Numbered from the stretch's first letter, positions 11,318 through 58,121 are shown. The stretch: DNA of 64,000 bases from Eubacteriales bacterium (GCA_045540015.1 JAZQGP010000013.1:128251-192250); one strand, 5' to 3'. Notes: generated by a model not told the origin, from the letters alone. Translations and numbers: made by a program.

Positions 11318-12081
11318 TAACTGTAAGAGATATAGACATTCTTTTGAGCGCGGTTGCTCCGAAGTCGCTTTCGGAGGAATGGGACAACGACGGCGTTATG
11401 CTGTGTTCGAGCCTTGATAAACCTGTGAAAAAAGTGCTTTGTGCACTTGAAGTTACAGAGGAAGTGTCAAAATATGCCTGTGAAAACGGCTTTGACCTTG
11501 TTGTAACGCATCACCCGCTTATCTTCAGGAAAATTTCAAGGCTTGACGAGAGCAATTTTAACGTGTTTGCACCGTTTTTTGAAAAAGGAATAAGCGTGCT
11601 TTCGTATCATACAAGGCTTGACAGCGCAGAGGGCGGAGTGAACGACTGTCTTGCAGGGCTTATCGGCATGACGGATGTTTGCGGCTTTGGCGGAGAATCC
11701 GGCTGCATAGCCAGAATCGGAAAAGTGATACCAATGTCATTTGAGCAGTTTGGGGAGCATCTGCTGTCAAAGCTTAATTGTGTAAATATCCGTGCGTGTG
11801 ATTCAGGAAAAGCAATAGAAAAGGTTGCGCTTGTCGGCGGCTCGGGTAAAGACTATATTTTTGATGCTGTGCGTTCGGGTGCAGATGCTTTTGTTACAAG
11901 CGAAATACCGCACCACATGTACGAAGAAGCAAAAAAGCTCGGCATAAGTCTTTTTGACTGCGGTCACTATTACACAGAAAACTGCATTGCCGAAAAGCTC
12001 GCAGAGCTTATAAAAGAAAAGTATCCCGAACTTTGCGTACAGGCTTTTGATGTACAAAGTCCGTATGTTTGTATACAGTAA
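11314..12081 (+). CDS. Nif3-like dinuclear metal center protein
   Basis: VVTHHPLIF motif, ~255 aa, coupled to trmK by an ATGA overlap. Confidence 0.85.
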   Translation: MITVRDIDILLSAVAPKSLSEEWDNDGVMLCSSLDKPVKKVLCALEVTEEVSKYACENGFDLVVTHHPLIFRKISRLDESNFNVFAPFFEKGISVLSYHTRLDSAEGGVNDCLAGLIGMTDVCGFGGESGCIARIGKVIPMSFEQFGEHLLSKLNCVNIRACDSGKAIEKVALVGGSGKDYIFDAVRSGADAFVTSEIPHHMYEEAKKLGISLFDCGHYYTENCIAEKLAELIKEKYPELCVQAFDVQSPYVCIQ

Positions 12082-12096
12082 ACCGGAGGAATAAAA

Positions 12097-13908
12097 GTGC
12101 CATTTGATGCAGGCGTTATGGCTGCGGTTGTAAAGCAGCTTCGCGAAAGTGCACTCGGTGCAAGAATAGATAAAATATATCAGCCCGAAAGGGATGAAAT
12201 TATACTGAATATAAGGGGTGTATCTCAGTCAAGACGTCTCTTGCTTTCGGCGTGTCCGGGTAACGCAAGGGTTGGATACTGCTCTGCAGACCGAGAGAAT
12301 CCGCAGACACCGCCAATGTTTTGTATGCTTCTCAGAAAGCATTTGTCAGGCGGACATATAACAGATGTCAGACAAATCGGCTTTGACAGAGCGATTGAGA
12401 TACGGATAAGTGCAAACGACGAAATGGGCTTTGCGTCGGACAAATATCTTATTTGTGAAATCATGGGAACGTACAGCAATATAGTATTCCTTGACGAGAA
12501 CAGGAAGATTATTTCCGTTTTACATCCCGTGAGTCTGTCTGTCAGTAACAAGCGGCAGGTTTTGTGCGGCTTTGTCTATGAAGATCCGCCAAAGCAAGAG
12601 GGAAAAATCGGAGCACTTGATATAACGAGCGAGGAATTCGATGCAAAAATCAAGAGCGATATTGAAAGCGGAAAAGCAGGTGCTGCAGACAAATACCTCA
12701 TTTCCTCGTTTGCAGGACTTTCGCCTCTTACTGCAAGAGAAATCGTATACAGAGCAAGCGGTTCTACGGGCACTCCTTTGACTGAAATTGACACAGACAA
12801 GCTTCGCTTTAATTATTTTCTTTTGTACGGAAATGTGGCAAAGAATGAGTTTTGTCCTTGCCTTATAAGGGATGCATCGGGAAACGTGGTTGACTTTTCG
12901 TTTTGCGAAATACGTCAGTACGGAGCAAATTACGCTTGTGTGATGTATGAAAACGTAAGCGAAATGCTTGATGCTTTCTTTGAAAAACGCGACAGGCAGG
13001 AAAGCGTAAAGCACAGAGGTCAGGATATTTTAAGATTACTTACAAATGCCGAAACGCGAATTTCAAAGAAAATTGCGCTTCAGCGTGAGTCACTCTCAGA
13101 GTGTGCCGGAAAAGACGAATGGAAAAAAACAGGCGAGCTTATAACGGCTAACATGTATCTTCTCAAAAAAGGTATGGACAAGGCAAGTCTTATCGATTAC
13201 AGCGACGAAAGCATGCCGACGGTTGAAATAGAGCTTGACACAAGGCTGACACCTGCCCAGAACGCGCAGAGGTATTTCAAGAAGTACAATAAGGCAAAAT
13301 CTGCCGAGATTATGCTAACCGAGCAAATCGCACAGGGTGAAAAGGAGCTTTCTTATTTAGACACTATTTTTGACAGCCTTACAAAAGCCGAAACGGAAGC
13401 AGACCTTTCTCAGATAAGAAACGAGCTTGCAATGACAGGCTACGGCAAGAAGCTTGAAAACATGAGAAAAAGCCTTAATAAGTCCAAAAAGGACTATAAG
13501 GCAACCATGAAAACCGTATATAAGCCGATGCGTTTTGAAACGAGCGGCGGATATGAGGTACTGTGCGGAAAGAACAATCTGCAGAATGACTATGTTACAA
13601 CTGTTGCGGCATCCAAGGACGATTACTGGTTCCATGTTAAAAACGCTCCCGGCTCTCACGTTGTAATGAGATGCGGCAAAGACGATCCGAGCGCCGAGGA
13701 TTTTACGCAGTGCGCCATGATTGCGGCTTTTTACAGCTCTCAGAAGGAGCTTCCGCAGGCACCTGTTGACTATACAAGAGTCAGAAACGTCAAAAAGCCG
13801 TCAGGCTCAAAGCCGGGATTTGTTATATATGAGTCAAATTACACGGCTTACGTAACGGCAAATGCCGAAGTGGTTGAAAAACTCAAAACAAGTGACAAGA
13901 GAGAGTGA
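12097..13908 (+). CDS. rqcH: ribosome quality control NFACT protein RqcH / FbpA-like
   Basis: N-terminal NFACT-N (MPFDAGVMAAVVKQLRE...IDKIYQPERDEI), coiled-coil middle region, and C-terminal NFACT-R (WFHVKNAPGSHVV). Confidence 0.85.
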   Translation: MPFDAGVMAAVVKQLRESALGARIDKIYQPERDEIILNIRGVSQSRRLLLSACPGNARVGYCSADRENPQTPPMFCMLLRKHLSGGHITDVRQIGFDRAIEIRISANDEMGFASDKYLICEIMGTYSNIVFLDENRKIISVLHPVSLSVSNKRQVLCGFVYEDPPKQEGKIGALDITSEEFDAKIKSDIESGKAGAADKYLISSFAGLSPLTAREIVYRASGSTGTPLTEIDTDKLRFNYFLLYGNVAKNEFCPCLIRDASGNVVDFSFCEIRQYGANYACVMYENVSEMLDAFFEKRDRQESVKHRGQDILRLLTNAETRISKKIALQRESLSECAGKDEWKKTGELITANMYLLKKGMDKASLIDYSDESMPTVEIELDTRLTPAQNAQRYFKKYNKAKSAEIMLTEQIAQGEKELSYLDTIFDSLTKAETEADLSQIRNELAMTGYGKKLENMRKSLNKSKKDYKATMKTVYKPMRFETSGGYEVLCGKNNLQNDYVTTVAASKDDYWFHVKNAPGSHVVMRCGKDDPSAEDFTQCAMIAAFYSSQKELPQAPVDYTRVRNVKKPSGSKPGFVIYESNYTAYVTANAEVVEKLKTSDKRE

Positions 13909-19695: not shown

Positions 19696-20697
19696 ATGCA
19701 GAACAATGTACGTCCTGAGACAATGGAAAGAATAACAACTCCTGAGCTTGCAAACGCTTTTATAGAAGAGCAGGTAAAGGAAATAAAGGCACAGGTGGGC
19801 GACAAGAAGGTTCTTTTGGCACTTTCCGGCGGTGTTGACTCATCGGTGGTTGCGGCACTTCTTATCAAGGCTATAGGAAAGCAGCTTGTGTGTGTTCATG
19901 TAAACCACGGACTTATGCGTAAGGGTGAAAGCGAACAGGTTATTGAGGTTTTCCGTAACCAGCTTGATGCAAACCTTGTTTATGTTGATGCAACCGACCG
20001 TTTTCTTGATTTGCTTGCAGGTGTTTCTGAACCCGAAAAGAAGAGAAAGATTATCGGCGGTGAGTTTATCAAGGTGTTTGATGAGGAGGCAGGAAAGCTT
20101 GAAGGCATTTCCTTCCTTGCGCAGGGTACAATATACCCCGATATCCTTGAAAGCGTAAAGCAGGCAGAGGGCAAAAAGGCAGTAAAGTCTCACCATAACG
20201 TAGGCGGACTTCCTGAGGAAATGCAGTTTGAGCTTGTAGAACCCATAAAGCTTCTTTTTAAAGATGAGGTTCGAGTTGTGGGTGAAGCTCTTGGTCTTCC
20301 TCATGCAATGGTATACCGTCAGCCGTTCCCGGGACCGGGTCTTGGCGTAAGATGCCTTGGCGCAATTACACGCGACAGACTCCATGCTCTCAGAGAAGCA
20401 GACGCAATTCTTCGCGATGAATTTGATAAAAACGGACTTGCTGAAAAGGTATGGCAGTATTTTGTAATAGTCCCCGACATGAAGAGTGTTGGTGTTAAAG
20501 ATGATAGCCGATATGAAGGCTGGCCTGCAATTATCAGAGCTGTCAATACAAAGGACGCTATGACCGCGTCAATAGAGGAAATTCCTTATTCAGTTCTTCA
20601 TATGGTTACAAGCCGTATAACAAGCGAGGTTGAGGGCATTAACCGTGTTCTTTATGATTTGACACCTAAGCCTACGGGTACTATTGAGTGGGAATGA
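19696..20697 (+). CDS. guaA: GMP synthase ATP-pyrophosphatase/dimerisation domains only (no GATase domain)
   Basis: PP-loop LALSGGVDSSV and the canonical C-terminus ...PTGTIEWE. At 333 aa it lacks the N-terminal glutamine amidotransferase domain. Confidence 0.85.
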   Translation: MQNNVRPETMERITTPELANAFIEEQVKEIKAQVGDKKVLLALSGGVDSSVVAALLIKAIGKQLVCVHVNHGLMRKGESEQVIEVFRNQLDANLVYVDATDRFLDLLAGVSEPEKKRKIIGGEFIKVFDEEAGKLEGISFLAQGTIYPDILESVKQAEGKKAVKSHHNVGGLPEEMQFELVEPIKLLFKDEVRVVGEALGLPHAMVYRQPFPGPGLGVRCLGAITRDRLHALREADAILRDEFDKNGLAEKVWQYFVIVPDMKSVGVKDDSRYEGWPAIIRAVNTKDAMTASIEEIPYSVLHMVTSRITSEVEGINRVLYDLTPKPTGTIEWE

Positions 20698-20797
20698 TCC
20701 CACGTATTTAGGGGCAACTCAAAGTTTCTCCCCGGGGCAAAAATCTTTTTCCTCGCTCCCGCTCGGAGAAGAAGAAAAAATATAGTAAAAAAATTAG

Positions 20798-20830
20798 AAC
20801 TTGTTCGTTTCGAACAAGGTCTTTTCTTTT
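20798..20830 (+). terminator. intrinsic terminator of guaA
   Basis: Stem CTTGTTCG / CGAACAAG with loop TTT, followed by CTTTTCTTTT. Confidence 0.6.
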
Positions 20831-20840
20831 CCCATTTCGA

Positions 20841-21120
20841 CCTTGTTTCCTTCTCTTTCTTTCTTTCTCCTTTCTCTCCCAAAAAGAAGAAGTAGAAGAA
20901 GGTGAAAATGGCTTTATTCCTTGATTTTTCCCTCTTTTTTATTTCTTTTTGAGAAGATTTATCTTTCTCTTTTTCTTTCCTTTTCAGGAGATGAGAAGAA
21001 CTTCTTTTTTCTCATTTCTTTTCTCCTTTTTTGAAGAAGAAAAAGAAGGGAAAGGGAAAAGGAAGAGAGAAAATGTTTTTGCCTTTTTTTGAAAAAAAGA
21101 GGAAAAAGAAAATTTGCAAC
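20841..21120. repeat. ~280-bp strand-asymmetric purine/pyrimidine low-complexity tract
   Basis: Alternating blocks of CT-only sequence (ttccttctctttctttctttctcctttctctccc) and GA-only sequence (gaagaagaaaaagaagggaaagggaaaaggaagagagaaaa). Track ORFs here are low-complexity artefacts. Confidence 0.8.
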
Positions 21121-21128
21121 GACATAGT

Positions 21129-21315
21129 ATTTTCCGAAAAAGTGATTTTTCGGAAAGAAAATCCGGGAAAATATATAAAATAAAGGCAAAAAAGAAAGAA
21201 AAAATACGAAAATACATGTAAAATCGGGAATAAAATCCCGAAAAAATAAAAATTCGGGAACATTTTCCCGAAAAAATCAATTTTTCGGGAGTTTTTCGGA
21301 AATTTTTCGGAAAAG
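21129..21315. repeat. array of >=10 TTTTCGGRA / TYCCGAAAA motifs (3 palindromes plus 3 direct repeats phased at 11 bp)
   Basis: Palindromes TTTCCGAAAAA-gtga-TTTTTCGGAAA (21132-21157), TCGGGA-ataaaa-TCCCGA (21225-21242) and TTCGGGAA-cattt-TTCCCGAA. Direct repeats TTTTTCGGGAG / TTTTTCGGAAA / TTTTTCGGAAA begin at 21280, 21291 and 21302 and abut the tnsA-like RBS. Confidence 0.75.
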
Positions 21316-21329
21316 GAAGGAGAAAGACT

Positions 21330-21683
21330 ATGAGAACGAAAAACATTAAAGACAGGTGCACCAAAAGAAAACTAAAAAAGTGCGAGGAGATAGCAAAAAC
21401 ATATGACAAGATACAAACGGCATATGCAGATGTTCTTGACAGAGACCCGAATGTCAAAAGCATCAGATGTAATGTCCCTCTCGACGACGAAAACTATATG
21501 ACAGATTTTCTATGCACCAAACAAGACGGAGATTTAATGGTAAGAGAGTGTGTGTTCAGAAGTAAACTGTCGCTTCCAAGAACTTGTAAATTGTTGGATA
21601 TCAGCCGAGAGTATTGGCTTAAAAGAGGAGTGACCGACTGGGCGATAGTTATAGAAAAGGAGGATATCAATGCAGAAGAATGA
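21330..21683 (+). CDS. short TnsA-N-terminal-like (PD-(D/E)xK fold) protein
   Basis: The pattern YMTDFLCTKQDGDLMVRECVF...REYWLKRGVTDWAIVIEKE resembles the TnsA endonuclease N-domain. It sits directly upstream of tnsB and overlaps its start. The canonical E-x-K lysine and the C-terminal domain are absent. Confidence 0.5.
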   Translation: MRTKNIKDRCTKRKLKKCEEIAKTYDKIQTAYADVLDRDPNVKSIRCNVPLDDENYMTDFLCTKQDGDLMVRECVFRSKLSLPRTCKLLDISREYWLKRGVTDWAIVIEKEDINAEE

Positions 21684-23391
21684 TATATTGAAAACAAAAG
21701 ACGGTGTTTTTCGCATTTTGAAAATAGACGGCGACAGAGTGTTTGCCATTGACTGCCAAAAACGGACGATGCCTAAATTCTATCCGACAGAGTTCTTCGA
21801 CAACGCAGAAACGGCAGACAACAGTATAGTTGTGCCCCGTTCTGACTTTGACTCCCTCTTACCAAAAGAAAGAAGTATTGCACAGCAGCGGTTTTCAATG
21901 ATTGCTTCGGCTGTGGCGGTTGTAGATGATGAGAATAAGAGAAATGAGATGATAAGACATTCGTCGAAAATGTTTGGTGTATGCAAAACTACAATCAGAA
22001 ACTATTTGTGTACTTATCTTGTCAGTCAGGACATTTCAAGTCTTGTTTGTCGGAAGAAGAAAGAAAAAGAACTGACTAAAGATCAGCGAAATATGCGCTG
22101 GGCACTTAACAAGTCTTTCTATACACAACATAAAAACTCCCTCTCGACGGCCTACACGATGATGTTGAAAGAGAAATACTGCAATGCAGAAGGCGAATTG
22201 ACGGAAGATTATCCGACTTTTAATCAGTTCAGATATTTTTACCGCAAAACCCGTAAACTTGAAAACTTCTATATAAAGAGAGACGGTATAAAGGACTATC
22301 AAAGAAACAACCGCCCTCTCGTCGGCAATGGAGTTCAAGAGTTTGCACCGTGTATCGGAACGGCAATGCTTGACAGCACTATCTGTGATATTTACCTTGT
22401 CGATGATGCCGGAAGGCTTATCGGCAGACCTGTCCTTGTTGCTGCTTGTGATGCTAATACTTCAATGTGTCTTGGATATTCTCTCCTTCTTGAAGGCGGT
22501 ACATATTCTTTGCAAAATCTTATGCTTAATATTCTCGAAGATAAGGTTACCCTTTGCGAGAGGATGGGTATAAGCATTACAAAGGAACAATGGGACGTGA
22601 ACCAGTTGCCAAGCGTGCTCATAACCGATGGCGGAAGTGAGTACAAAGGACAGCAGTTTTCCCAAATTGCTGAACTTGGAGTTACACTTGTAAATCTTCC
22701 TCCGTACCGCCCTGACCTCAAAGGCAGTGTCGAAAAGTTCTTTGACCTTGTTCAAAGTTCATATAAAGAGGTGCTGAAAGGTAAGGGTGTCATAATGCCC
22801 GACTACCAGGAAAGAGGAGCACACGATTACCGCAAAGATGCCGTTCTTACCCTCTCGGAGTTTGAAAGGATAATTGTTCGGTGCATCATTTATTACAACA
22901 GCGAAAGGGTAATAAAAAACTTTCCGTATACTTCCAAGATGTTAGAGGCAGGAGTAAAACCCTACGCCAATGAAATATGGAACTTCAAGAAAAATGATGA
23001 GGCTGACAATCTGATTTCTGTCACACATAAAGAGTTGATTTTAACATTGCTTCCAAGGACAACGGCTAAGTTCACAAGATTTGGCTTAAAGGTAAATGGA
23101 CTTAAGTACTATGCTGACGGTTACACCGATGAATTTCTTTCAGGCGGCGAAGTGACTGTTTCCTACAACCCTGACAACTGCGGCAAAGTCTGGCTTAAAG
23201 AAGAGAATGGTACGTTTGTGGAGTTCTCTTTAATAGAAAGCCGTTATGATGATATGTCCCTCTCGGAGGTCAAAGATATACAGCAGAAACAAAGACAGAT
23301 GGAAAACGATGCAATAAGAGAAAATTATACCGCGAAAATTGAACTGCTTTCTTTTTTGAAACGGTGTCTGCAAAGTCGTCGGGTGACGTAA
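21670..23391 (+). CDS. tnsB: DDE (rve/Mu-type) transposase TnsB/TniA, zero-frame product
   Basis: DDE triad context: LDSTICDIYLVD, LITDGGSEYKG, KGSVEKFF. N-terminal HTH-like region. Order tnsB-tnsC-tniQ. Confidence 0.85.
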   Translation: MQKNDILKTKDGVFRILKIDGDRVFAIDCQKRTMPKFYPTEFFDNAETADNSIVVPRSDFDSLLPKERSIAQQRFSMIASAVAVVDDENKRNEMIRHSSKMFGVCKTTIRNYLCTYLVSQDISSLVCRKKKEKELTKDQRNMRWALNKSFYTQHKNSLSTAYTMMLKEKYCNAEGELTEDYPTFNQFRYFYRKTRKLENFYIKRDGIKDYQRNNRPLVGNGVQEFAPCIGTAMLDSTICDIYLVDDAGRLIGRPVLVAACDANTSMCLGYSLLLEGGTYSLQNLMLNILEDKVTLCERMGISITKEQWDVNQLPSVLITDGGSEYKGQQFSQIAELGVTLVNLPPYRPDLKGSVEKFFDLVQSSYKEVLKGKGVIMPDYQERGAHDYRKDAVLTLSEFERIIVRCIIYYNSERVIKNFPYTSKMLEAGVKPYANEIWNFKKNDEADNLISVTHKELILTLLPRTTAKFTRFGLKVNGLKYYADGYTDEFLSGGEVTVSYNPDNCGKVWLKEENGTFVEFSLIESRYDDMSLSEVKDIQQKQRQMENDAIRENYTAKIELLSFLKRCLQSRRVT

Positions 23392-23471
23392 ATATAAAGG
23401 GAATTCGCAAGGCAAAACAGTCCGCCAAGAGAAAATTACACCGCGATATTGGAGGTGAACTTGATGACTGA
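23352..23471 (+). other. slippery heptamer T_TTT_TTG plus a 37-codon -1-frame extension of tnsB ending inside the tnsC start
   Basis: The -1 frame is open from 23343 to TGA 23469-23471. It encodes ETVSAKSSGDVNIKGIRKAKQSAKRKLHRDIGGELDD. The stop overlaps the tnsC ATG (ATGACTGA). Confidence 0.5.
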
Positions 23472-24687
23472 TATTATAAGCATAATGCCCAAAATGCTGA
23501 CAGGAGAAGAACTTGATAAGGCTCTTGAAATATTACCCGAATACGACGAGAGCATCGTAGAAAAGAGTGTTCCCGAAAGACTTGTTGCACTTCAGGATAT
23601 TTACAGAGTTTTTATTCCGTCGGCAATGTCAAGAGAGATTTACACCAAAATGTACTTGTCTCTTCTTCGGTCGTTACAGAAAAAGCAGTCACTTCTTGCC
23701 GTCAGACAGTACAGCGAAAACAGCAAAATGATACGGCAGAAATCTTATGAAAGTATTATTGGAGGAAGCGACAGTTTCACCATTATCGGAGAAAGCGGTA
23801 TTGGCAAAAGTTCAGCCGTCAGCCGTGTTGTCAACATACTTGCAGAAAGTCCTGTCATTGAGATCAACAATTCAAAAGTCATTCCTTGCCTGCAGGTTCA
23901 GGCACCTGCCGACTCATCAATCAAAGGCTTATTGCTTGAGATTTTACGAAAGGCTGACGAAGTACTTGAAACCAAATACCACGAAAACGCAATTCGTTCT
24001 CACGCAACGACGGATATGCTCATCGGAACTGTCAGTCAGGTGGCACTTAACCACATTGGACTTCTTATTGTTGACGAAATACAGAATGTGGTGAACAGTA
24101 AAAGCGGAAGAAACATTGTGGGGGCTTTGACGCAGTTAATCAACAACAGCGGAGTTTCCGTTGCAATGGTCGGCACACCCGAAAGCACTGTGTTTTTTGA
24201 CAGCACAATGATGCTTGCAAGGCGTTCTCTCGGTCTTAATTATTCGGCTATGGAATACACCGATGAATACAGAAACTTTTGCAGAGTGCTTCTCGGATAT
24301 TGCTATGTAAAAGAGCCTGTGACAGTTAACGAAGAACTACTACTGTGGCTTTATAATCACTCAAAAGGAAACGCAAGTGCTGTGGCAAATCTCATTCACG
24401 ACGGGCAGGAAATGGCCATTCTCGAAGGCACAGAACGGCTTGATATCGCAATTCTCACCAAGGTATTTGACAGCAGAATGACAATGCTCCACGATTATAT
24501 TGCTCCCGAAAAAACAAAAGCCTCACCGCCCAAAAGAAAGAAGACGGAATGGCTTGAAATAACAGATGATTTTGTGAGTGATAATATCAGCATTCTTGAG
24601 ATTTCTTCAAACGCCAAGAAGAACAGTTGCAATATAGTTTCAGAACTGCAAAAGGCGGGCATTGAAATATTGGAGGTGGCAATATGA
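23464..24687 (+). CDS. tnsC: AAA+ ATPase TnsC/TniB
   Basis: Walker A GESGIGKSSAV and Walker B LLIVDEIQN. ATG at 23464 lies 6 nt after GGAGGTG. Confidence 0.85.
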   Translation: MTDIISIMPKMLTGEELDKALEILPEYDESIVEKSVPERLVALQDIYRVFIPSAMSREIYTKMYLSLLRSLQKKQSLLAVRQYSENSKMIRQKSYESIIGGSDSFTIIGESGIGKSSAVSRVVNILAESPVIEINNSKVIPCLQVQAPADSSIKGLLLEILRKADEVLETKYHENAIRSHATTDMLIGTVSQVALNHIGLLIVDEIQNVVNSKSGRNIVGALTQLINNSGVSVAMVGTPESTVFFDSTMMLARRSLGLNYSAMEYTDEYRNFCRVLLGYCYVKEPVTVNEELLLWLYNHSKGNASAVANLIHDGQEMAILEGTERLDIAILTKVFDSRMTMLHDYIAPEKTKASPPKRKKTEWLEITDDFVSDNISILEISSNAKKNSCNIVSELQKAGIEILEVAI

Positions 24688-26027
24688 TAGCATTCTTTCC
24701 AGAGGCTTACCCCGATGAACTTCTTTATTCTTTACTTTCCCGTTATCACCAAAGGTCAGGCAATGCAAGGTTTGTTTTCACTGCAGAGGAACTTTATCGA
24801 AACGGAAAAATTACGCACCCGTCAATTGAGTTTGTAAACCGTTATACCGATGATGCAATGTTGTGGCTCACAAAAGAAATGCCGTGGGAAACCGTGGCTG
24901 AAAAGTATACTATGTTTCCTGCCCTCATTCGCTTTCTCCCTTTCAAAAGAAGAAGAGAAGCGGAAGAAGGAGTAAGAAGTCAAAACGGGAACTGGAAAAA
25001 TATAATGAATCTTCCCGTTCTTAAGGAGAAAAGATTTCTTCGTTTTTGTCACGAGTGTGCAAAAGAAGACAGAGAGAAATATGGTGAAACCTACTGGCAC
25101 AGAGAGCATCAGATACCGAGAGTTCGGGTGTGCCCAAAGCATCGAACTTATCTTGAAAATAGTAGCATTCCCATCGGATCAAAGACTACACCGGGACTGT
25201 TTGATGCAGAGAGTAATGTTCCTGAAAGCATAGGCGTAAAGTATTGCGAAAACCAAAGAGAAATAGAATTCACGCAGTACGTTTTAGAAGTGTTCAAATG
25301 TTCCGTTGACATTGAAACAAATTTCGATGTTGGTGATTACTTATACTCCAAATTGCCACGAAAGTACAAGAACAAGTCAGGATTGATGTGCCACATTTCG
25401 CAGTTTTATGAAGACTATACAAGGTTTTATGACGGAATGCCCGTGATGTCGAAGTCATATTTGCAAAAGATTTTTAACGGCTATATGTACGATGTATATA
25501 ATATACTTCAAATTGCTTTCTTTATTGGTGTTTCTGTATATGACATTACTCACATTCCCTCTCAAAAACGGGAATACGATGAACTCTACAATTGTCTTGC
25601 AGAAAAGCACAATCTTGACTATTCGGTTGTTGCTGATATTGCCGAAGAAATCATAAAACAAAAAGCCCCGAAAGTTTCTAATATTTCAGGACCGCGAAGG
25701 AAAGCATATGAAAAGCTTGATGAGGAATTATTGCCAAAGGTCAAGGCTGTTGTCGACGAAATAATAGGGAAGGAAGGTAAGCCGGAAAGAGTATCGCCGA
25801 CCAAGATACAAAGATTTATGGGACTTCCGCAAAAGCAGTTTAATAAACTCCCGAAGTGTAAGGCGTATATTGAAAGCAAAGCCGAAACGCAGGAACAATT
25901 CTGGAAAAGGAAAGTTGATTGGGCAGTGAGGAAAATACAAAAAGCAAACGGGACAGTGACGGTGTCGAAGGTAATGAAGAGGGCGAATATGAGGAAAAGG
26001 GAGATAGAAAAAATGCTTGTTATTTAG
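24684..26027 (+). CDS. tniQ: TniQ/TnsD-family target-selection protein
   Basis: N-terminal TniQ signature FPEAYPDELLYSLLSRY. Zn-finger-like FCHECAKED...RVCPKH. ATGA overlap with tnsC. Confidence 0.85.
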   Translation: MIAFFPEAYPDELLYSLLSRYHQRSGNARFVFTAEELYRNGKITHPSIEFVNRYTDDAMLWLTKEMPWETVAEKYTMFPALIRFLPFKRRREAEEGVRSQNGNWKNIMNLPVLKEKRFLRFCHECAKEDREKYGETYWHREHQIPRVRVCPKHRTYLENSSIPIGSKTTPGLFDAESNVPESIGVKYCENQREIEFTQYVLEVFKCSVDIETNFDVGDYLYSKLPRKYKNKSGLMCHISQFYEDYTRFYDGMPVMSKSYLQKIFNGYMYDVYNILQIAFFIGVSVYDITHIPSQKREYDELYNCLAEKHNLDYSVVADIAEEIIKQKAPKVSNISGPRRKAYEKLDEELLPKVKAVVDEIIGKEGKPERVSPTKIQRFMGLPQKQFNKLPKCKAYIESKAETQEQFWKRKVDWAVRKIQKANGTVTVSKVMKRANMRKREIEKMLVI

Positions 26028-26089
26028 CTTTCGTCGTTGTCACATTCGTACCTGAAAACGGCACAAACGTGGCAATAATCCGAAGGTCG

Positions 26090-26116
26090 CCCATTCAAAT
26101 CCTGCCCCTGCAACCA
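26090..26116 (+). other. tRNA 3'-end-like fragment (T-loop, T-stem 3' arm, acceptor 3' arm, ACCA)
   Basis: The sequence cattcaaatCCTGCCCCTGCAACCA contains T-loop TTCAAAT, T-stem arm CCTGC, acceptor arm CCCTGCA and A-CCA. No matching 5' acceptor or T-stem arm exists upstream, so it is not an intact tRNA. Confidence 0.45.
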
Positions 26117-26123
26117 AACAAGA

Positions 26124-26160
26124 ACGGTAATTTTGATACAAAGTTACCGTTCATTTTTTA
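26124..26160 (+). terminator. weak intrinsic terminator
   Basis: Stem ACGGTAA / TTACCGT with a 13-nt loop, then TCATTTTTTA. Confidence 0.35.
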
Positions 26161-26294
26161 TGCCGAAAACGCCTATATACAAGGGTTTTCCGAAACAAGA
26201 AAAGTTTTATTGTTCTTCTAATCGTGATGTTTTGTAATGAAATAATCCTTGTTTTGCTTTCCCAAAATTCACTCAGAAACTTTTCTCTAAAAAT

Positions 26295-26345
26295 AAATGC
26301 ACCGCTTTTGACTTGAAATTTCGTTGAAGCGGTGCATTTTGTTAA
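26295..26345. terminator. bidirectional intrinsic terminator (serves the minus-strand GT4 gene)
   Basis: 13-bp stem AAATGCACCGCTT / AAGCGGTGCATTT with T-runs on both strands. Confidence 0.65.
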
Positions 26346-26443
26346 TTACACTTATGAAGATGATTTTTTAATTGTTGCTTATACGCCCTTATTCGTATCT
26401 TTTATATCTATATATTTCATAGTTAACTCGATAGCGTCAATAT

Positions 26444-27706
26444 TTATTTTTTTCGTTTGTTTGAAAGTTTTTCAAGGTTTTCCATTATTTCACTATTCAT
26501 TCTCTTAAATCTGTCTGAAGGTTTGGTTCGGCGCAAGTTTAATCCGTTATTATAGCGTTCAATAACTACTTCATATTGTCCCATAGCCGCCTTTACTGAA
26601 TCCTCCCAAGATAAATAAAGTTCTTCACTTGCACACTGTCCGACAGCGTGCATTTTTTCTTTTTTATCGTAAAGAGATATCAGACATTTGGATAAAGCTT
26701 CTGAGGATTCATCCACTAAAAATCCGTTTCTACCATCGGTCACTCCTTCAGCAGCACAACTGTTTTTTATTAACACTGCACCCAAGCTGCAAGCTGCCGC
26801 CTCTCGAACTACCAATCCATTTGTATCATAGGATGATGGAAACAAAAACAGATCGGCTCTGCAATACCAAGCACGAAGCACCTCACGATCCCGTATAGCA
26901 CCGGTGAAAATACATTTGTCTTTAATGCCCATCGTTTCTGTATAGTCTTTTATTTCATCCAAGTCATCACCGTCACCTATAAATACCATACGGAAATCCT
27001 TACCTTGCTTTGCGAGTAGAGCGAGAGCATCCACCGATAAGCGTATTCCTTTATACCACATCATACGCCCCACATAAAGGTAGATAGGCACATCTTTAGG
27101 AAGGCAGTACTTTTTTGTGGCTTCCTTGATTTTGGTGTCATATACTCGCTGACACGGAAGATCTACACCATTAGGCATTACAATATATTCCCCTTCGTAT
27201 CCAAGAGATCGTAGATTCTCTCCTGCACCATGGCTTACCGTCCATACCTCATCACAAGCGTTAATATTTGAAACAATTGCTTTTTTGCAAGCACTTTGTA
27301 AAGGCCTACTTTTTATTATATTGGCTATATCAACATCAAATTTAGTATGATATGTGAGAACAATCGGCACATTAAGCATTTGCCTCAGTTCTCTTGCCAT
27401 AAAGGTCGACATAATTGGGCAATGACTGTGCAGCAGTGATACATGGTACTGATTGGAGGCTCTTACAACCTCCGGTGAAAATGGAATTCCTGCCATATAT
27501 CCGTCCATCTTTCTAAAGGTAACACTCGGATATCGTACAATCGGAAAAGAATATTTGTTGTCTTCGGCTTGGGGATGCGAAGGAGTTACTACCATTGCTC
27601 CGACACCGTTATTTTTGATATTTTCGGCATAATTCAGTACTGTATTTGCCACACCGTCGATTTGAGACGGAAAAGAATCATTTAATAGACATATGGTTTT
27701 AAGCAT
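26444..27706 (-). CDS. GT4-family glycosyltransferase (glycolipid-synthase-like)
   Basis: GT-B fold with N-terminal DGVANTV and a C-terminal E-x7-E-like region (PSSYDTNGLVVREAAAC). It resembles diacylglycerol glucosyltransferases. Confidence 0.8.
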   Translation of the reverse strand: MLKTICLLNDSFPSQIDGVANTVLNYAENIKNNGVGAMVVTPSHPQAEDNKYSFPIVRYPSVTFRKMDGYMAGIPFSPEVVRASNQYHVSLLHSHCPIMSTFMARELRQMLNVPIVLTYHTKFDVDIANIIKSRPLQSACKKAIVSNINACDEVWTVSHGAGENLRSLGYEGEYIVMPNGVDLPCQRVYDTKIKEATKKYCLPKDVPIYLYVGRMMWYKGIRLSVDALALLAKQGKDFRMVFIGDGDDLDEIKDYTETMGIKDKCIFTGAIRDREVLRAWYCRADLFLFPSSYDTNGLVVREAAACSLGAVLIKNSCAAEGVTDGRNGFLVDESSEALSKCLISLYDKKEKMHAVGQCASEELYLSWEDSVKAAMGQYEVVIERYNNGLNLRRTKPSDRFKRMNSEIMENLEKLSNKRKK

Positions 27707-27860
27707 TTCATTTGTTGCCTCCTTTTCATATCATTGTAACATAAAAAAATAAACTGAAAAGAAACTAAAGAAACAAATATCATAACAGTGCTTTTTGCCG
27801 TCCTTGCCTTGACACTGGGTAGCATATAATATAAAATATTATAAACAAATTTTTGAATTA

Positions 27861-27892
27861 GTTTAGATTCAGTTTATTTATCAGGTATATAA
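27861..27892 (+). promoter_or_regulatory. operator-like motif (site a) plus -10 box upstream of the two-component operon
   Basis: GTTTAGATTCAGTTTATT, 8 nt, then TATAAT (27887-27892). Confidence 0.55.
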
Positions 27893-27922
27893 TGAAATAA
27901 CCGAAATAAAAGGAGATAAATT

Positions 27923-28597
27923 ATGTTTCACATTCTTGTTGTTGATGATGACCGTCATACCAGGATGCTTCTTGAAGCCATTTTGAAAGCGGAAAATTAT
28001 ACCGTATTCACTGCATCGAACGGAGAAGATGCCCTTAGTGTAATGGACAAAGAGCATATTGATCTTGTGGTGCTTGATATTATGATGCCGAAAATGGACG
28101 GCTATGAATTCACAAAGTTTCTTCGTGAAACGGATAATAATTTGCCAATCCTTATGGTATCTGCAAGACAGCTTCCTGCGGACAAGCGTAAGGGCTTCCT
28201 TGTGGGAACTGATGATTACATTACAAAGCCTATTGACGAAGAGGAAATGCTACTTCGTATAAAGGCTCTCCTTCGCCGTGCACAGATTGTTAACGAACAG
28301 AAGATGAAAATCGGCGAGGTTATTCTTGACTATAATTCCTTTTCCGTAAGCAGGAACGGAGAAACACAGGTATTGCCGCAAAAGGAGTTTCTGCTTCTGT
28401 ATAAGCTGCTTTCATACCCCGGACAGATTTTTACACGAATTCAGCTTATGGACGAAATTTGGGGAGCTGAAAGTGATACCGGGTGGGAAACTGTTACGGT
28501 ACACGTAGGACGACTTCGCAAACGCTTTGAAAACTGGAAGGAGTTTGAAATAGAGTCTGTAAGAGGACTCGGATACAGGGCGGTAAAGAGAGTATGA
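27923..28597 (+). CDS. OmpR/PhoB-family response regulator
   Basis: Receiver domain (VVDDD...DLVVLDIMMPKMDG) plus a winged-helix output domain (...VRGLGYRAV). Confidence 0.9.
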   Translation: MFHILVVDDDRHTRMLLEAILKAENYTVFTASNGEDALSVMDKEHIDLVVLDIMMPKMDGYEFTKFLRETDNNLPILMVSARQLPADKRKGFLVGTDDYITKPIDEEEMLLRIKALLRRAQIVNEQKMKIGEVILDYNSFSVSRNGETQVLPQKEFLLLYKLLSYPGQIFTRIQLMDEIWGAESDTGWETVTVHVGRLRKRFENWKEFEIESVRGLGYRAVKRV

Positions 28598-29655
28598 AAA
28601 AAGAAGAACGCAGACACAGACTGGCATTGACTTTGTTGGTTGCGGCATTTGTTTTCTGCATTATTCTCGTTGCCGTGATATTATCCGCAATTACAGTTTA
28701 TATTCTTTTGGATACGGGAGTTATTTCCACCATCGACGGAAGACCCGAGCCTATGCATACACTTATATTTATGGGACTTATCAGTCTTGTTATGGGCTCT
28801 GCGTTAACAGCGGTGATAAGTAAAATTTCCTTAAAGCCGGTAAACCGCATTATCGATCAGATGAACAGACTTGCTTCCGGAGATTTTAAGGCAAGACTGA
28901 AGATAGGAAAGCCGATAAATGCACATCCAACCTTTGTTGAAGTAACCGAGAGTTTTAACAAAATGGCACAGGAGCTTGAAAATACCGAAATGCTTCGCGG
29001 AGATTTTATAAACAACTTCTCACACGAATTCAAAACTCCCATAGTTTCAATTGCAGGCTTTGCAAAGCTTTTAAAACGCGGAAATCTCACCGAAGAACAG
29101 AAAAAAGAATATATTGACATAATTGAAGAGGAGTCAATGCGCCTTGCTGCAATGGCTACCAACGTTCTGAATTTGACAAAATACGAAAATCAAACAATTC
29201 TCACTGACGTAACAAGTTTTAATCTTTCCGAGCAGCTGCGTTCAAGCATCTTGTCTCTTGAAGGAAAATGGTCTAAAAAGAGTATTGATTTTAATCTTGA
29301 TTTCGGGGAACACATAATACAGGGAAACAAAGATATGCTCAAGCATGTCTGGATCAATCTTGTTGACAATGCCATTAAGTTCTCAAGCGGTGGCGGAACG
29401 GTCGAAATAGGAATAAGGGAACGAAGCGGATATTATGAAGTTTCCGTGCAGAATTGTGGCAGTGAAATTACACCCGAACAACAGAAAAAGATATTTAATA
29501 AATTCTATCAGGCAGATGAATCGCACGCATCTGAAGGTAACGGCGTTGGTCTTGCTCTTGTGAAGGGCATTTCTGAGCTTCACGGTGGAAAGGTTACCGT
29601 ACACTCCGAAGACGGCACTACTACCTTTACGGTAAGCCTGCCCAAAGAGCAATAA
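28594..29655 (+). CDS. sensor histidine kinase (two TM segments with a ~12-aa loop, HAMP, HisKA, HATPase)
   Basis: H-box FSHEFKTPI, N-box DNAIKFS, G-box GNGVGLALV. The very short extracytoplasmic loop suggests intramembrane sensing. Confidence 0.9.
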   Translation: MKKEERRHRLALTLLVAAFVFCIILVAVILSAITVYILLDTGVISTIDGRPEPMHTLIFMGLISLVMGSALTAVISKISLKPVNRIIDQMNRLASGDFKARLKIGKPINAHPTFVEVTESFNKMAQELENTEMLRGDFINNFSHEFKTPIVSIAGFAKLLKRGNLTEEQKKEYIDIIEEESMRLAAMATNVLNLTKYENQTILTDVTSFNLSEQLRSSILSLEGKWSKKSIDFNLDFGEHIIQGNKDMLKHVWINLVDNAIKFSSGGGTVEIGIRERSGYYEVSVQNCGSEITPEQQKKIFNKFYQADESHASEGNGVGLALVKGISELHGGKVTVHSEDGTTTFTVSLPKEQ

Positions 29656-57596: not shown

Positions 57597-57629
57597 AAAA
57601 CCACCAGTTGAACTGGTGGTTTTGATTTT
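57597..57629 (+). terminator. intrinsic terminator
   Basis: AAAA-CCACCAG-ttgaa-CTGGTGG-TTTTGATTTT. Confidence 0.65.
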
Positions 57630-58121
57630 CCCATTTCGACCTTGTTTCCCTTCTCTTTCTCTCTCCTTTCTCTCCCAAAAAGAAGAAACAGAAGAAAGAG
57701 AAAATGGCGTTATGAAATTATCATCTACATTGCTGAAGAAGTCCTAAAACAAAAAGCCCCGAAAGTTTCCAAAATTTCAGGACCGAGAAGACGAGAGTAT
57801 GAAAAACTTGACGATGAATTATTTCCGAAAGTAAAATTAATGGTAGATGAAATAGTAGGGAAGGATGGCAAACCTGAAAGGGTGTCGCCGACCAAGATTC
57901 AAAGGCTTATGGGACTTCCGCAAAAGCAATTTCAAAAACTTCCGAAGTGTAGAAAGTATATCGAAAGCAAAGCCGAAACTCAGGAAGAATATTGGAAAAG
58001 AAAAGTGGAATGGGCAGTGAGGGAAATACAAAAAGCAAACGGGACAGTGACGGTGTCGAAGGTAATGAAGAGGGCGAATATGAGGAAGGAACAATTGGTG
58101 TGTCTGAATTGGAAAGAATAG
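57626..58121 (+). pseudogene. decayed second copy of the Tn7-like element: ~80-bp left segment fused to the 3' third of tniQ
   Basis: 57626-57706 is near-identical to 20827-20906. 57720-58088 encodes a peptide ~80% identical to TniQ residues ~315-440 (KQKAPKVS.ISGPRR...ANGTVTVSKVMKRANMRK). tnsA, tnsB, tnsC and the 5' two-thirds of tniQ are absent. Confidence 0.8.

Follow-up and report, generated by a model that had tools for sequence, protein, structure and literature searches.

What kind of element has settled directly behind guaA in the Eubacteriales bacterium assembly GCA_045540015.1 (G000 below; 2.35 Mb, 57 contigs), and is this gene its target? The stretch analysed, hereafter called the window, comprises 64,000 nucleotides (nt) of contig C13 (JAZQGP010000013.1:128251-192250, i.e., C13:128251-192250), and coordinates are positions in the window unless a contig or locus is named; L-numbers designate loci of relatives and G-numbers designate genomes. 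Four open reading frames (ORFs) on the plus strand, 21330-21683, 21670-23391, 23449-24687 and 24684-26027, lie there behind an ORF of 333 amino acids (aa) at 19696-20697, and their order, tnsA-tnsB-tnsC-tniQ, is the same in all relatives. The window likely holds an element of the Tn7-like kind, from a large clade that occurs in Oscillospirales (gut and rumen Clostridia) and homes to the 3' end of guaA; we read it as a new Tn7 variant targeting guaA, possibly replicative. The named relatives are found in metagenome-assembled genomes of Feifaniaceae and Oscillospiraceae, and the element is rare, with 6 carriers in 401 genomes of species representatives of the order.

The genes themselves clearly indicate the relationship to Tn7. 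An earlier note on this DNA had read the four products as a TnsA-like protein, a DDE transposase, an AAA+ ATPase and a 447-aa TniQ/TnsD-like protein, and Pfam profiles match all four, the first one below the cutoff (Tn7_TnsA-like_N, E-value 3.5e-4). The product of tnsB (21670-23391, plus strand) contains a Mu-transpos_C domain and resembles Tn7 TnsB (PDB code 7PIK) over residues 140-569 (phmmer E-value 1.7e-40), with D, D and E all aligned and conserved. The AAA+ regulator TnsC (23449-24687, plus strand) matches TniB (9e-14) and AAA_22 (1e-13), and the 447-aa target selector TniQ/TnsD (24684-26027, plus strand) matches TniQ (2e-20) and the TnsD C-terminus (2e-7). Searches found 654 homologues of TniQ, which is of the TnsD type throughout; a scan of JGI metagenomes with TniQ patterns gave no match. 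The translational coupling that the note had assumed for all four genes holds for tnsA/tnsB and tnsC/tniQ, which overlap, but not for tnsB/tnsC, which do not overlap in the zero frame. The TnsB of relatives is 600 aa long, with a tail overlapping the start of tnsC; in the window the last 37 residues are found in the -1 frame past a T-run at 23352-23358 and reach up to the start of tnsC. Mutation (a 1-base frameshift), faulty assembly or slippage may each account for this break (23343-23460); since the tail ETVSAKxxGD..GGELDD lies within a single 600-aa tnsB frame overlapping the tnsC ATG in L056 and L025, a mutation or a homopolymer assembly error is indicated rather than a family-wide programmed slip.

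The 117-aa product of tnsA (21330-21683, plus strand) was compared using one diverse 42-sequence alignment for the profile search, hhalign and AlphaFold 2 (AF2) modelling. The profile search found Tn7 TnsA (PDB code 1F1Z, E-value 5.7e-5), and hhalign revealed similarity to Bacillus cereus TnsA (probability 97%). The AF2 model, built with a predicted local distance difference test score (pLDDT) of 94.8 from the 42 diverse sequences, as against 43 from 10 close ones, had 1T0F and 1F1Z as its top Foldseek matches (TM-score 0.76, E-value 5e-5). By alignment and predicted structure, the protein is a true homologue of the TnsA catalytic domain, with a restriction-endonuclease-like fold; it ends where that domain ends and is devoid of the TnsA C-terminal domain. 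Its close homologues number 614, nearly all of 114-125 aa among those listed, and 655 clusters were obtained at 50% identity.

The alignments map TnsA E63 to Q29, D114 to D59, Q130 to E73 and K132 to V75, leaving the canonical catalytic set (E63, D114, K132) incomplete. The earlier note had pointed to RECVF in place of E-x-K; the canonical lysine is indeed replaced (V75), but the aligned TnsA motif is Q130-x-K132, with E73 standing for Q130. Its doubt as to whether 5'-end cleavage is retained was justified, because the protein has neither the canonical lysine nor any of TnsA's C-terminal domain. Nevertheless invariant in the 42 TnsA-like sequences (37-60% identity) are D59, E73, K17 and W104. 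Judging from this conservation, the metal site of the minimal TnsA is probably kept and, in view of the invariant D59, E73 and K17, the active site may be altered, with K17 perhaps standing in for the canonical lysine.

The 333-aa ORF in front of the tns genes (19696-20697, plus strand) is guaA (Pfam GMP_synt_C and PP-loop; NCBIfam TIGR00884, 447 bits). It encodes the ATP-pyrophosphatase part only and, because its match is confined to the C-terminal part of GuaA, represents a stand-alone subunit; its conserved 3' end, coding for ...KPTGTIEWE before the stop codon, is the presumed recognition site of TniQ. Wherever the left flank of a relative was available, guaA was found in the same orientation, in at least eight other genome contexts and with TniQ identity down to 29%. 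From host to host, the genes upstream of guaA change, and guaA itself is either split or fused. In L048-52 (TniQ 53% identical), a split guaA follows 2-oxoacid dehydrogenase (E1-dehydrogenase) genes; in L054 (51%), purA precedes a full-length guaA and the element carries FokI restriction-modification cargo; L059/60 have an F420-ligase gene with guaA, as does the window; L062 and L063 retain a guaA fragment at the contig start. In G346 (TniQ 29-31% identical) and G105 (39%), tniQ is located 4.3 kb downstream of a full-length guaA on the same strand, and in G041, the host of L019 (82% identical), guaA lies 327 nt from a contig edge. A stand-alone ATP-pyrophosphatase GuaA was also seen in L048, L058 and L059, and a fused enzyme of 511-519 aa in other hosts of the clade. 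The insertion is site- and orientation-specific, downstream of a conserved gene, and homing to guaA is strongly supported by these comparisons of genomes. A missing association with guaA, or a missing conserved junction, in other genomes would have spoken against the earlier note; both were looked for, and both the association and the junction recur in those eight or more further contexts. The note had also recognised the geometry of Tn7 at glmS, and in fact the end carrying the tns genes faces guaA and the genes read away from it.

Comparison of the relatives' junctions defines where the element starts. Counted from the guaA stop, the first box conserved in the element (GGCAAAA) follows after 38 nt in seven loci; in an eighth the spacing is 37 nt. 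In the pairs L062 and L063, and L059 and L047, guaA and the first bases after it differ, yet the two members agree in sequence from a point at +5 to +8; this places the end of host DNA about 7 nt past the stop. All eight loci have T at +8, and the element begins with TGT in L062, L063, L058 and G346. In the window, the 7-nt host spacer TCCCACG occupies 20698-20704 (plus strand), so that the junction is 20704/20705 and the element starts at 20705, not at about 20.8 kb and not behind a guaA terminator, as had been supposed. The intrinsic terminator in question, consisting of hairpin 1 (20796-20822) and a T-run (together 20796-20830, plus strand), is borne by the element and conserved in the family: its stem GACCTTG...CAAGGTC with the T-run was found in the window, in a second module copy of G000 described below, and in L027, L048, L054, L058, L059, L062 and G346, with varying inner stems. 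Since the hairpin is conserved in all relatives, it is owned by the element and is not the terminator of guaA. A reading of 20829-26116 as a plain insertion after a guaA terminator, suggested by comparison with G005, was rejected, because G005 has a permuted module of its own, without genes, and because the hairpin belongs to the element. Nor is GACCTTG enriched, and it was discarded as a repeated binding site. That the palindrome CCGAAAAC..GGGTTTTCGG (26162-26196) might be the native terminator of guaA became less likely, because the same motif belongs to an integrase-element arm in G003, G007 and G028.

The ends of the element show an unusual arrangement. End E1, the guaA-proximal terminal repeat (20705-20758, plus strand; nhmmer E-value 3e-12), contains two TTTxTCC-type boxes and GGCAAAAAT; these first ~55 nt have an inverted copy, E2 (21061-21124, plus strand; nhmmer E-value 1e-7), whose terminus ...TGCAACGACA ends in ...ACA exactly at the start of the tnsA leader, TAGTATTTTCC.... 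The ends of the relatives (n = 13) align without gaps with 71% column identity and share two GGATAAA-type boxes, TTTGCC and terminal TG...ACA; from the E2 box to the terminus there are 26 nt in 13 loci. The nhmmer search found exactly one E1 and one E2 per locus, and in the whole G000 assembly only four ends, i.e., two copies of the module. E2 follows E1 only ~350 nt further in (up to ~1.1 kb in relatives) and is located upstream of tnsA. Besides the terminator, the interval contains an array of polypyrimidine-loop-polypurine hairpins (20831-21060, plus strand; run-based scan, fold z = -2.9), which ranges from ~150 to ~900 nt in relatives and is absent in G346. The same scan of the 2.35-Mb genome revealed two full arrays, both within the module copies, and one weak 4-run match on contig C28. 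The module folds as a closed multi-hairpin structure, and an Rfam search with this intergenic region found no family. Terminal inverted repeats, which the earlier note advised looking for, thus exist, each with two repeated boxes, but neither the transposition genes nor the whole element lies between them; we know of no described Tn7-like element with an end pair around a non-coding module instead of the tns genes.

The tnsA leader (21125-21329, plus strand) comprises TTTTCCGAAAAA palindromes and three 11-bp TTTTTCGGAAA repeats up to the ribosome-binding site. It is probably an operator/promoter region; its motif, which builds the palindromes and the 11-bp direct repeats over the ribosome-binding site, resembles an operator at which a protein of the element would act, not a transposon terminus. 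This motif varies with the subfamily: TTTTCCGAAAAA in the window, TTTTCCCAAAAA in L025 and G346, and TTTCGCTAAAAA in L059 (types CCGAAAA, CCCAAAA and GCTAAAA). A cluster of TTTTCGGAAA repeats and TG-N7-ATAGTA were each considered as a terminus and rejected, as searches by motif clusters, blastn-short and fuzzy regular expressions with up to 7 mismatches revealed no inverted copy in any locus or on contig C13.

Copies of the module lacking the genes exist as well. The second copy of G000 (C13:223960-224425, outside the window) is a complete E1-terminator-array-E2 unit without tns genes; gene-less modules in this copy, G005 and G010 end precisely between GACA and CCA, and the copy in G001 is truncated. 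A sigma-70-like promoter, TTGCAT..17..TATAAT, precedes the module in G000 copy 2, L027 and G001, and an arm of an integrase-type element (a palindrome with TTTGACAAC repeats) is situated behind the module of G000 copy 2; neither further tns genes nor an integrase island was found beside that copy. In L056, the array of the window is joined to a different transposon subtype, and this mosaic indicates that recombination occurs at the border between array and transposon. L048 contains a second array of 900 nt (11757-12673), 350 nt downstream of tniQ and without recognisable E1/E2 ends, and a small second array was seen in L058 (14126-14272).

The guaA end also serves other mobile elements. Its last 12 nt, GAGTGGGA(A/G)TAA, are the integration core of mobilisable elements with a tyrosine integrase and NikA in L008 (G003), L011 (G028), L020 (G007), L058 and L047. 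In L058 and L047, an integrative element is wedged between guaA and the Tn7-like element, flanked by direct repeats of this core; a tyrosine integrase is encoded in the inserted element of L058 and none was found in the sampled part of that of L047. The core in the form GA[AG]TGGGA[AG]T[AG][AG] occurs once on contig C13, with three chance matches on other contigs. The end of guaA is a contested landing site among mobile elements; in the window, no recombinase gene was found at 20698-27900, so the insertion does not have the make-up of a recombinase island.

On the far side, the sequences downstream of the tniQ stop are unrelated among family members. In the window, synteny with G005 resumes at ~26117 (88% identity), and hairpin 2 with the palindrome CCGAAAAC..GGGTTTTCCG (26120-26196, plus strand) is common to G005 at the same identity. 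An orphan fragment resembling a tRNA 3' end (26085-26116, plus strand; T-loop, acceptor 3' strand and ACCA), read from the sequence, is shared, together with the hairpin after tniQ, with L019; ARAGORN found no tRNA there and no tRNA gene in the window, and Rfam no family. An OmpR-type regulator and kinase pair at 27923-29655 has counterparts in L048 (18533-20289) with 60-69% aa identity and in the opposite orientation, so that two only distantly related hosts both have this pair a few kb or less from guaA. The synteny with G005 from ~26117 and these two-component genes near guaA in the host of L048 together imply that the window copy is essentially cargo-free, and the latter that its right boundary must be within 2 kb of tniQ. 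Being without cargo and having a frameshifted tnsB, the window copy may be inactive. L019 comes from a different bacterial family and matches the full 5.2 kb with 82% identity; this implies that the unit as a whole has been mobile recently. A decayed second copy at 57626-58121 (plus strand) joins ~88 nt from the start of the array to what is left of a TniQ C-terminus (residues 308-441, 77-79% aa identity); the array start stands behind an unrelated terminator, the remnant corresponds to the last ~130 tniQ codons, and an AraC-type gene follows on the minus strand.

Relatives carry cargo typical of Tn7-like elements, namely FokI restriction-modification, Shedu, type ISP, KAP NTPase and SLFN genes. 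The longest view is offered by G346 (L070/L071, contig C33), where a 28.5-kb island extends from guaA and includes the tns operon and 22 kb of cargo with Shedu, a type ISP-like enzyme, P-type ATPases and serine recombinases. Its far boundary is a 137-nt direct repeat (93% identical) composed of the guaA core, 7 nt, E1 and the terminator; TTGGCAAC direct repeats occur ~110 nt before it.

Compared with Tn7 at attTn7/glmS, the element shares a homologous TnsB with the DDE triad, a TnsC of the AAA+ type and a TniQ/TnsD selector, a single orientation a few bases past the stop of a housekeeping gene, with the tnsA-proximal end facing this gene and the tns genes reading away, and, in relatives, defence-gene cargo. 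Unlike Tn7, it targets guaA, with the junction 7 nt past the stop, lacks TnsE, and has a TnsA of 117 aa instead of 273, without the C-terminal domain and with Val for K132; about 620 nt of structured non-coding DNA separate its terminus from tnsA, the inverted partner end is upstream of tnsA, and neither a distal end nor a 5-bp duplication was seen. TnsC senses distorted DNA. Tn7 is said to insert next to triplex or structured DNA, as reportedly described by Rao, Miller and Craig in 2000. Polypurine/polypyrimidine tracts beside a Tn7-type end recall this case, but the tracts of the window lie inside the element and form inverted rather than mirror repeats, with no link to targeting shown.

No Cas domains were found among the ORFs from 16 to 40 kb and TRF found no CRISPR-like array in 15-40 kb, the hairpin array not being CRISPR-like, in agreement with the earlier note; with neither cas effector genes nor a CRISPR array, the element is not a CRISPR-associated transposon (CAST). 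Nor does it fit the Tn5053/Tn402 family, since it has a gene for a TnsA fold and no adjacent resolvase; no resolvase adjoins the tns operon in the window, L048, L054 or L059. Missing or doubtful 5'-strand cleavage links the element to Tn7-like systems without active TnsA (type V-K CAST, Tn5053/Tn402 and catalytic mutants of TnsA), where it predicts replicative transposition and cointegrates (PMC11406308, section 2.7), and the direct repeats of G346 and the modules standing alone would be in keeping with cointegrates and products of their resolution. In contrast to those systems, the window element keeps a TnsA-fold protein with two invariant acidic residues, has no Cas12k, CRISPR or TniR-type resolvase beside the operon, and appears to use TnsD-like targeting. 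The tyrosine-recombinase elements of G003, G007, G028, L058 and L047 use the same gene end in the same genomes but have a recombinase and a 12-nt core inside guaA, have no tns genes and start at the core.

A mechanism can be suggested on this basis. TniQ would bind the conserved coding end of guaA (..KPxGTIEWE before the stop) and, via TnsC, would position TnsB strand transfer 7 bp past the guaA stop, by analogy with TnsD at glmS. The element's own terminator may end guaA transcription and shield the tns operon. Movement is probably replicative rather than cut-and-paste, because the canonical lysine and C-terminal domain are missing from TnsA and neither a distal end nor a 5-bp duplication was detected; the direct repeat of G346 and the gene-less modules fit replicative movement better. 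The E1-E2 module could move or persist alone.

Several observations weigh against this reading. Searches of 8-10 kb downstream of tniQ in eight loci, and of contig C13, revealed no third, distal (left) end, and the E1/E2 pair brackets the ~420-nt module only and not the tns genes. Matching 5-mers indicative of a 5-bp target duplication were not seen, by reading, at the candidate boundaries of the window, L019 and the gene-less modules, the far boundary being undefined. Three module copies (G000 copy 2, L027 and G001) stand behind a promoter rather than guaA, and some of the guaA linkage could be indirect, since the last 12 nt of the gene double as a tyrosine-recombinase core. The window tnsB is frameshifted, and the relatives are mostly short metagenome contigs broken in the hairpin array.

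An alternative is an ordinary cut-and-paste Tn7-like element, where E1 would be the right end, the true left end would lie beyond cargo (more than the 8-10 kb sampled) or be decayed, E2 would be an extra internal end of a nested mini-element, and the minimal TnsA would act through D59, E73 and a relocated lysine, K17. We regard this as somewhat unlikely. The invariance of those three residues over sequences of 37-60% identity suggests a preserved active site, the cargo of relatives extends past the sampled flank, Tn7-like elements are often 10-100 kb long (PMC8649781), and the gene-less modules fit a mobilised nested mini-element. However, there is no third end anywhere in the G000 assembly, the far boundary of G346, 28.5 kb off, is a direct repeat (137 nt, 93%) and not an inverted end, and no end is seen within the 2 kb from tniQ to which the right boundary of the window copy is confined. 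A distal end beyond the sampled flanks is open for long-cargo relatives; the window and G346 fit it poorly.

The replicative reading has a more specific form, which is tentative and rather unlikely as it stands. The DNA bounded by ends would be the E1-terminator-array-E2 module only, with the tns operon and cargo outside it and entering the guaA site as donor backbone; a cleavage-impaired minimal TnsA would lead to replicative, cointegrate-type integration of a circular element, with the mini-transposon serving as an attachment device. The E1-terminator repeat of G346, the second array of L048 and the stand-alone modules might then be footprints of cointegrates and their resolution, and the hairpin array may act as a DNA or RNA structure needed for the process.

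It is unlikely that the window copy is simply a fixed dead relic and that the E1-array-E2 module, as a host-domesticated or independent small mobile or RNA-encoding unit, is a mere neighbour. The frameshift in tnsB, the lack of cargo and of a distal end, the decayed copy at 57.6 kb, the closed multi-hairpin fold and the gene-less modules of G000, G005, G010 and G001, in three cases preceded by a promoter of their own, would suit such a history. Yet the module is joined to the tns operon in identical register in every family member examined, across different host families, no arrays occur elsewhere in the genome besides the weak 4-run match on C28, the three other tns ORFs are intact, and the 82% identity of L019 over 5.2 kb in another family points to recent mobility of the whole unit. 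Finally, it is very unlikely that the tns module is not the guaA-targeting agent but a passenger or neighbour of tyrosine or serine recombinase elements using the core GAGTGGGA(A/G)TAA, or a circle integrating by recombination at the E1-terminator region: integrase and NikA elements do adjoin the core in G003, G007 and G028, core direct repeats surround the integrase island of L058, and the 137-nt repeat of G346 starts with the core and flanks tns genes and cargo with serine recombinases inside, but the window, L048, L054 and L059 have no gene for a recombinase from guaA to the flank, the element starts 7 nt past the core after a host-specific spacer whereas recombinase islands start at the core itself, the islands of L058 and L047 are clearly later insertions between guaA and a pre-existing E1, and the TnsD-type TniQ is conserved throughout.

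If the element indeed homes to guaA, its target would be an addition to the known ones. In full-text searches combining guaA with Tn7-like, TnsD or TniQ, guaA was nowhere described as an attachment site of Tn7-like elements, and it is not among the attachment sites of Faure et al. 2023 with supplements, Benler et al. 2021, the 2024 Annual Review of Biochemistry review of CAST (PMC11406308) and a 2025 preprint on archaeal Tn7, which name glmS, tRNA genes, comM, guaC, yciA, ffs, rsmJ and nrdD; as a site of recombinase islands, guaA is already known. The gene would be added to glmS, tRNA genes, comM, yhiN, guaC, ffs and others in the series of protein-guided safe harbours for Tn7-type elements, in the setting of abundant, poorly studied gut and rumen Clostridia. 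To our knowledge, the guaA end is universally conserved; together with the compact machinery (four genes, ~4.7 kb, a 117-aa TnsA), this recommends the system as a possible source of tools for site-specific integration in Firmicutes. With its minimal TnsA, it offers a test of which TnsA parts 5' cleavage and contact with TnsC require, and the use of the same 12 nt by recombinase islands makes the locus an arena of competition between mobile elements. If it is true that both functional ends lie on one side of the transposase genes, this would be an undescribed mode of mobility in the Tn7 family.

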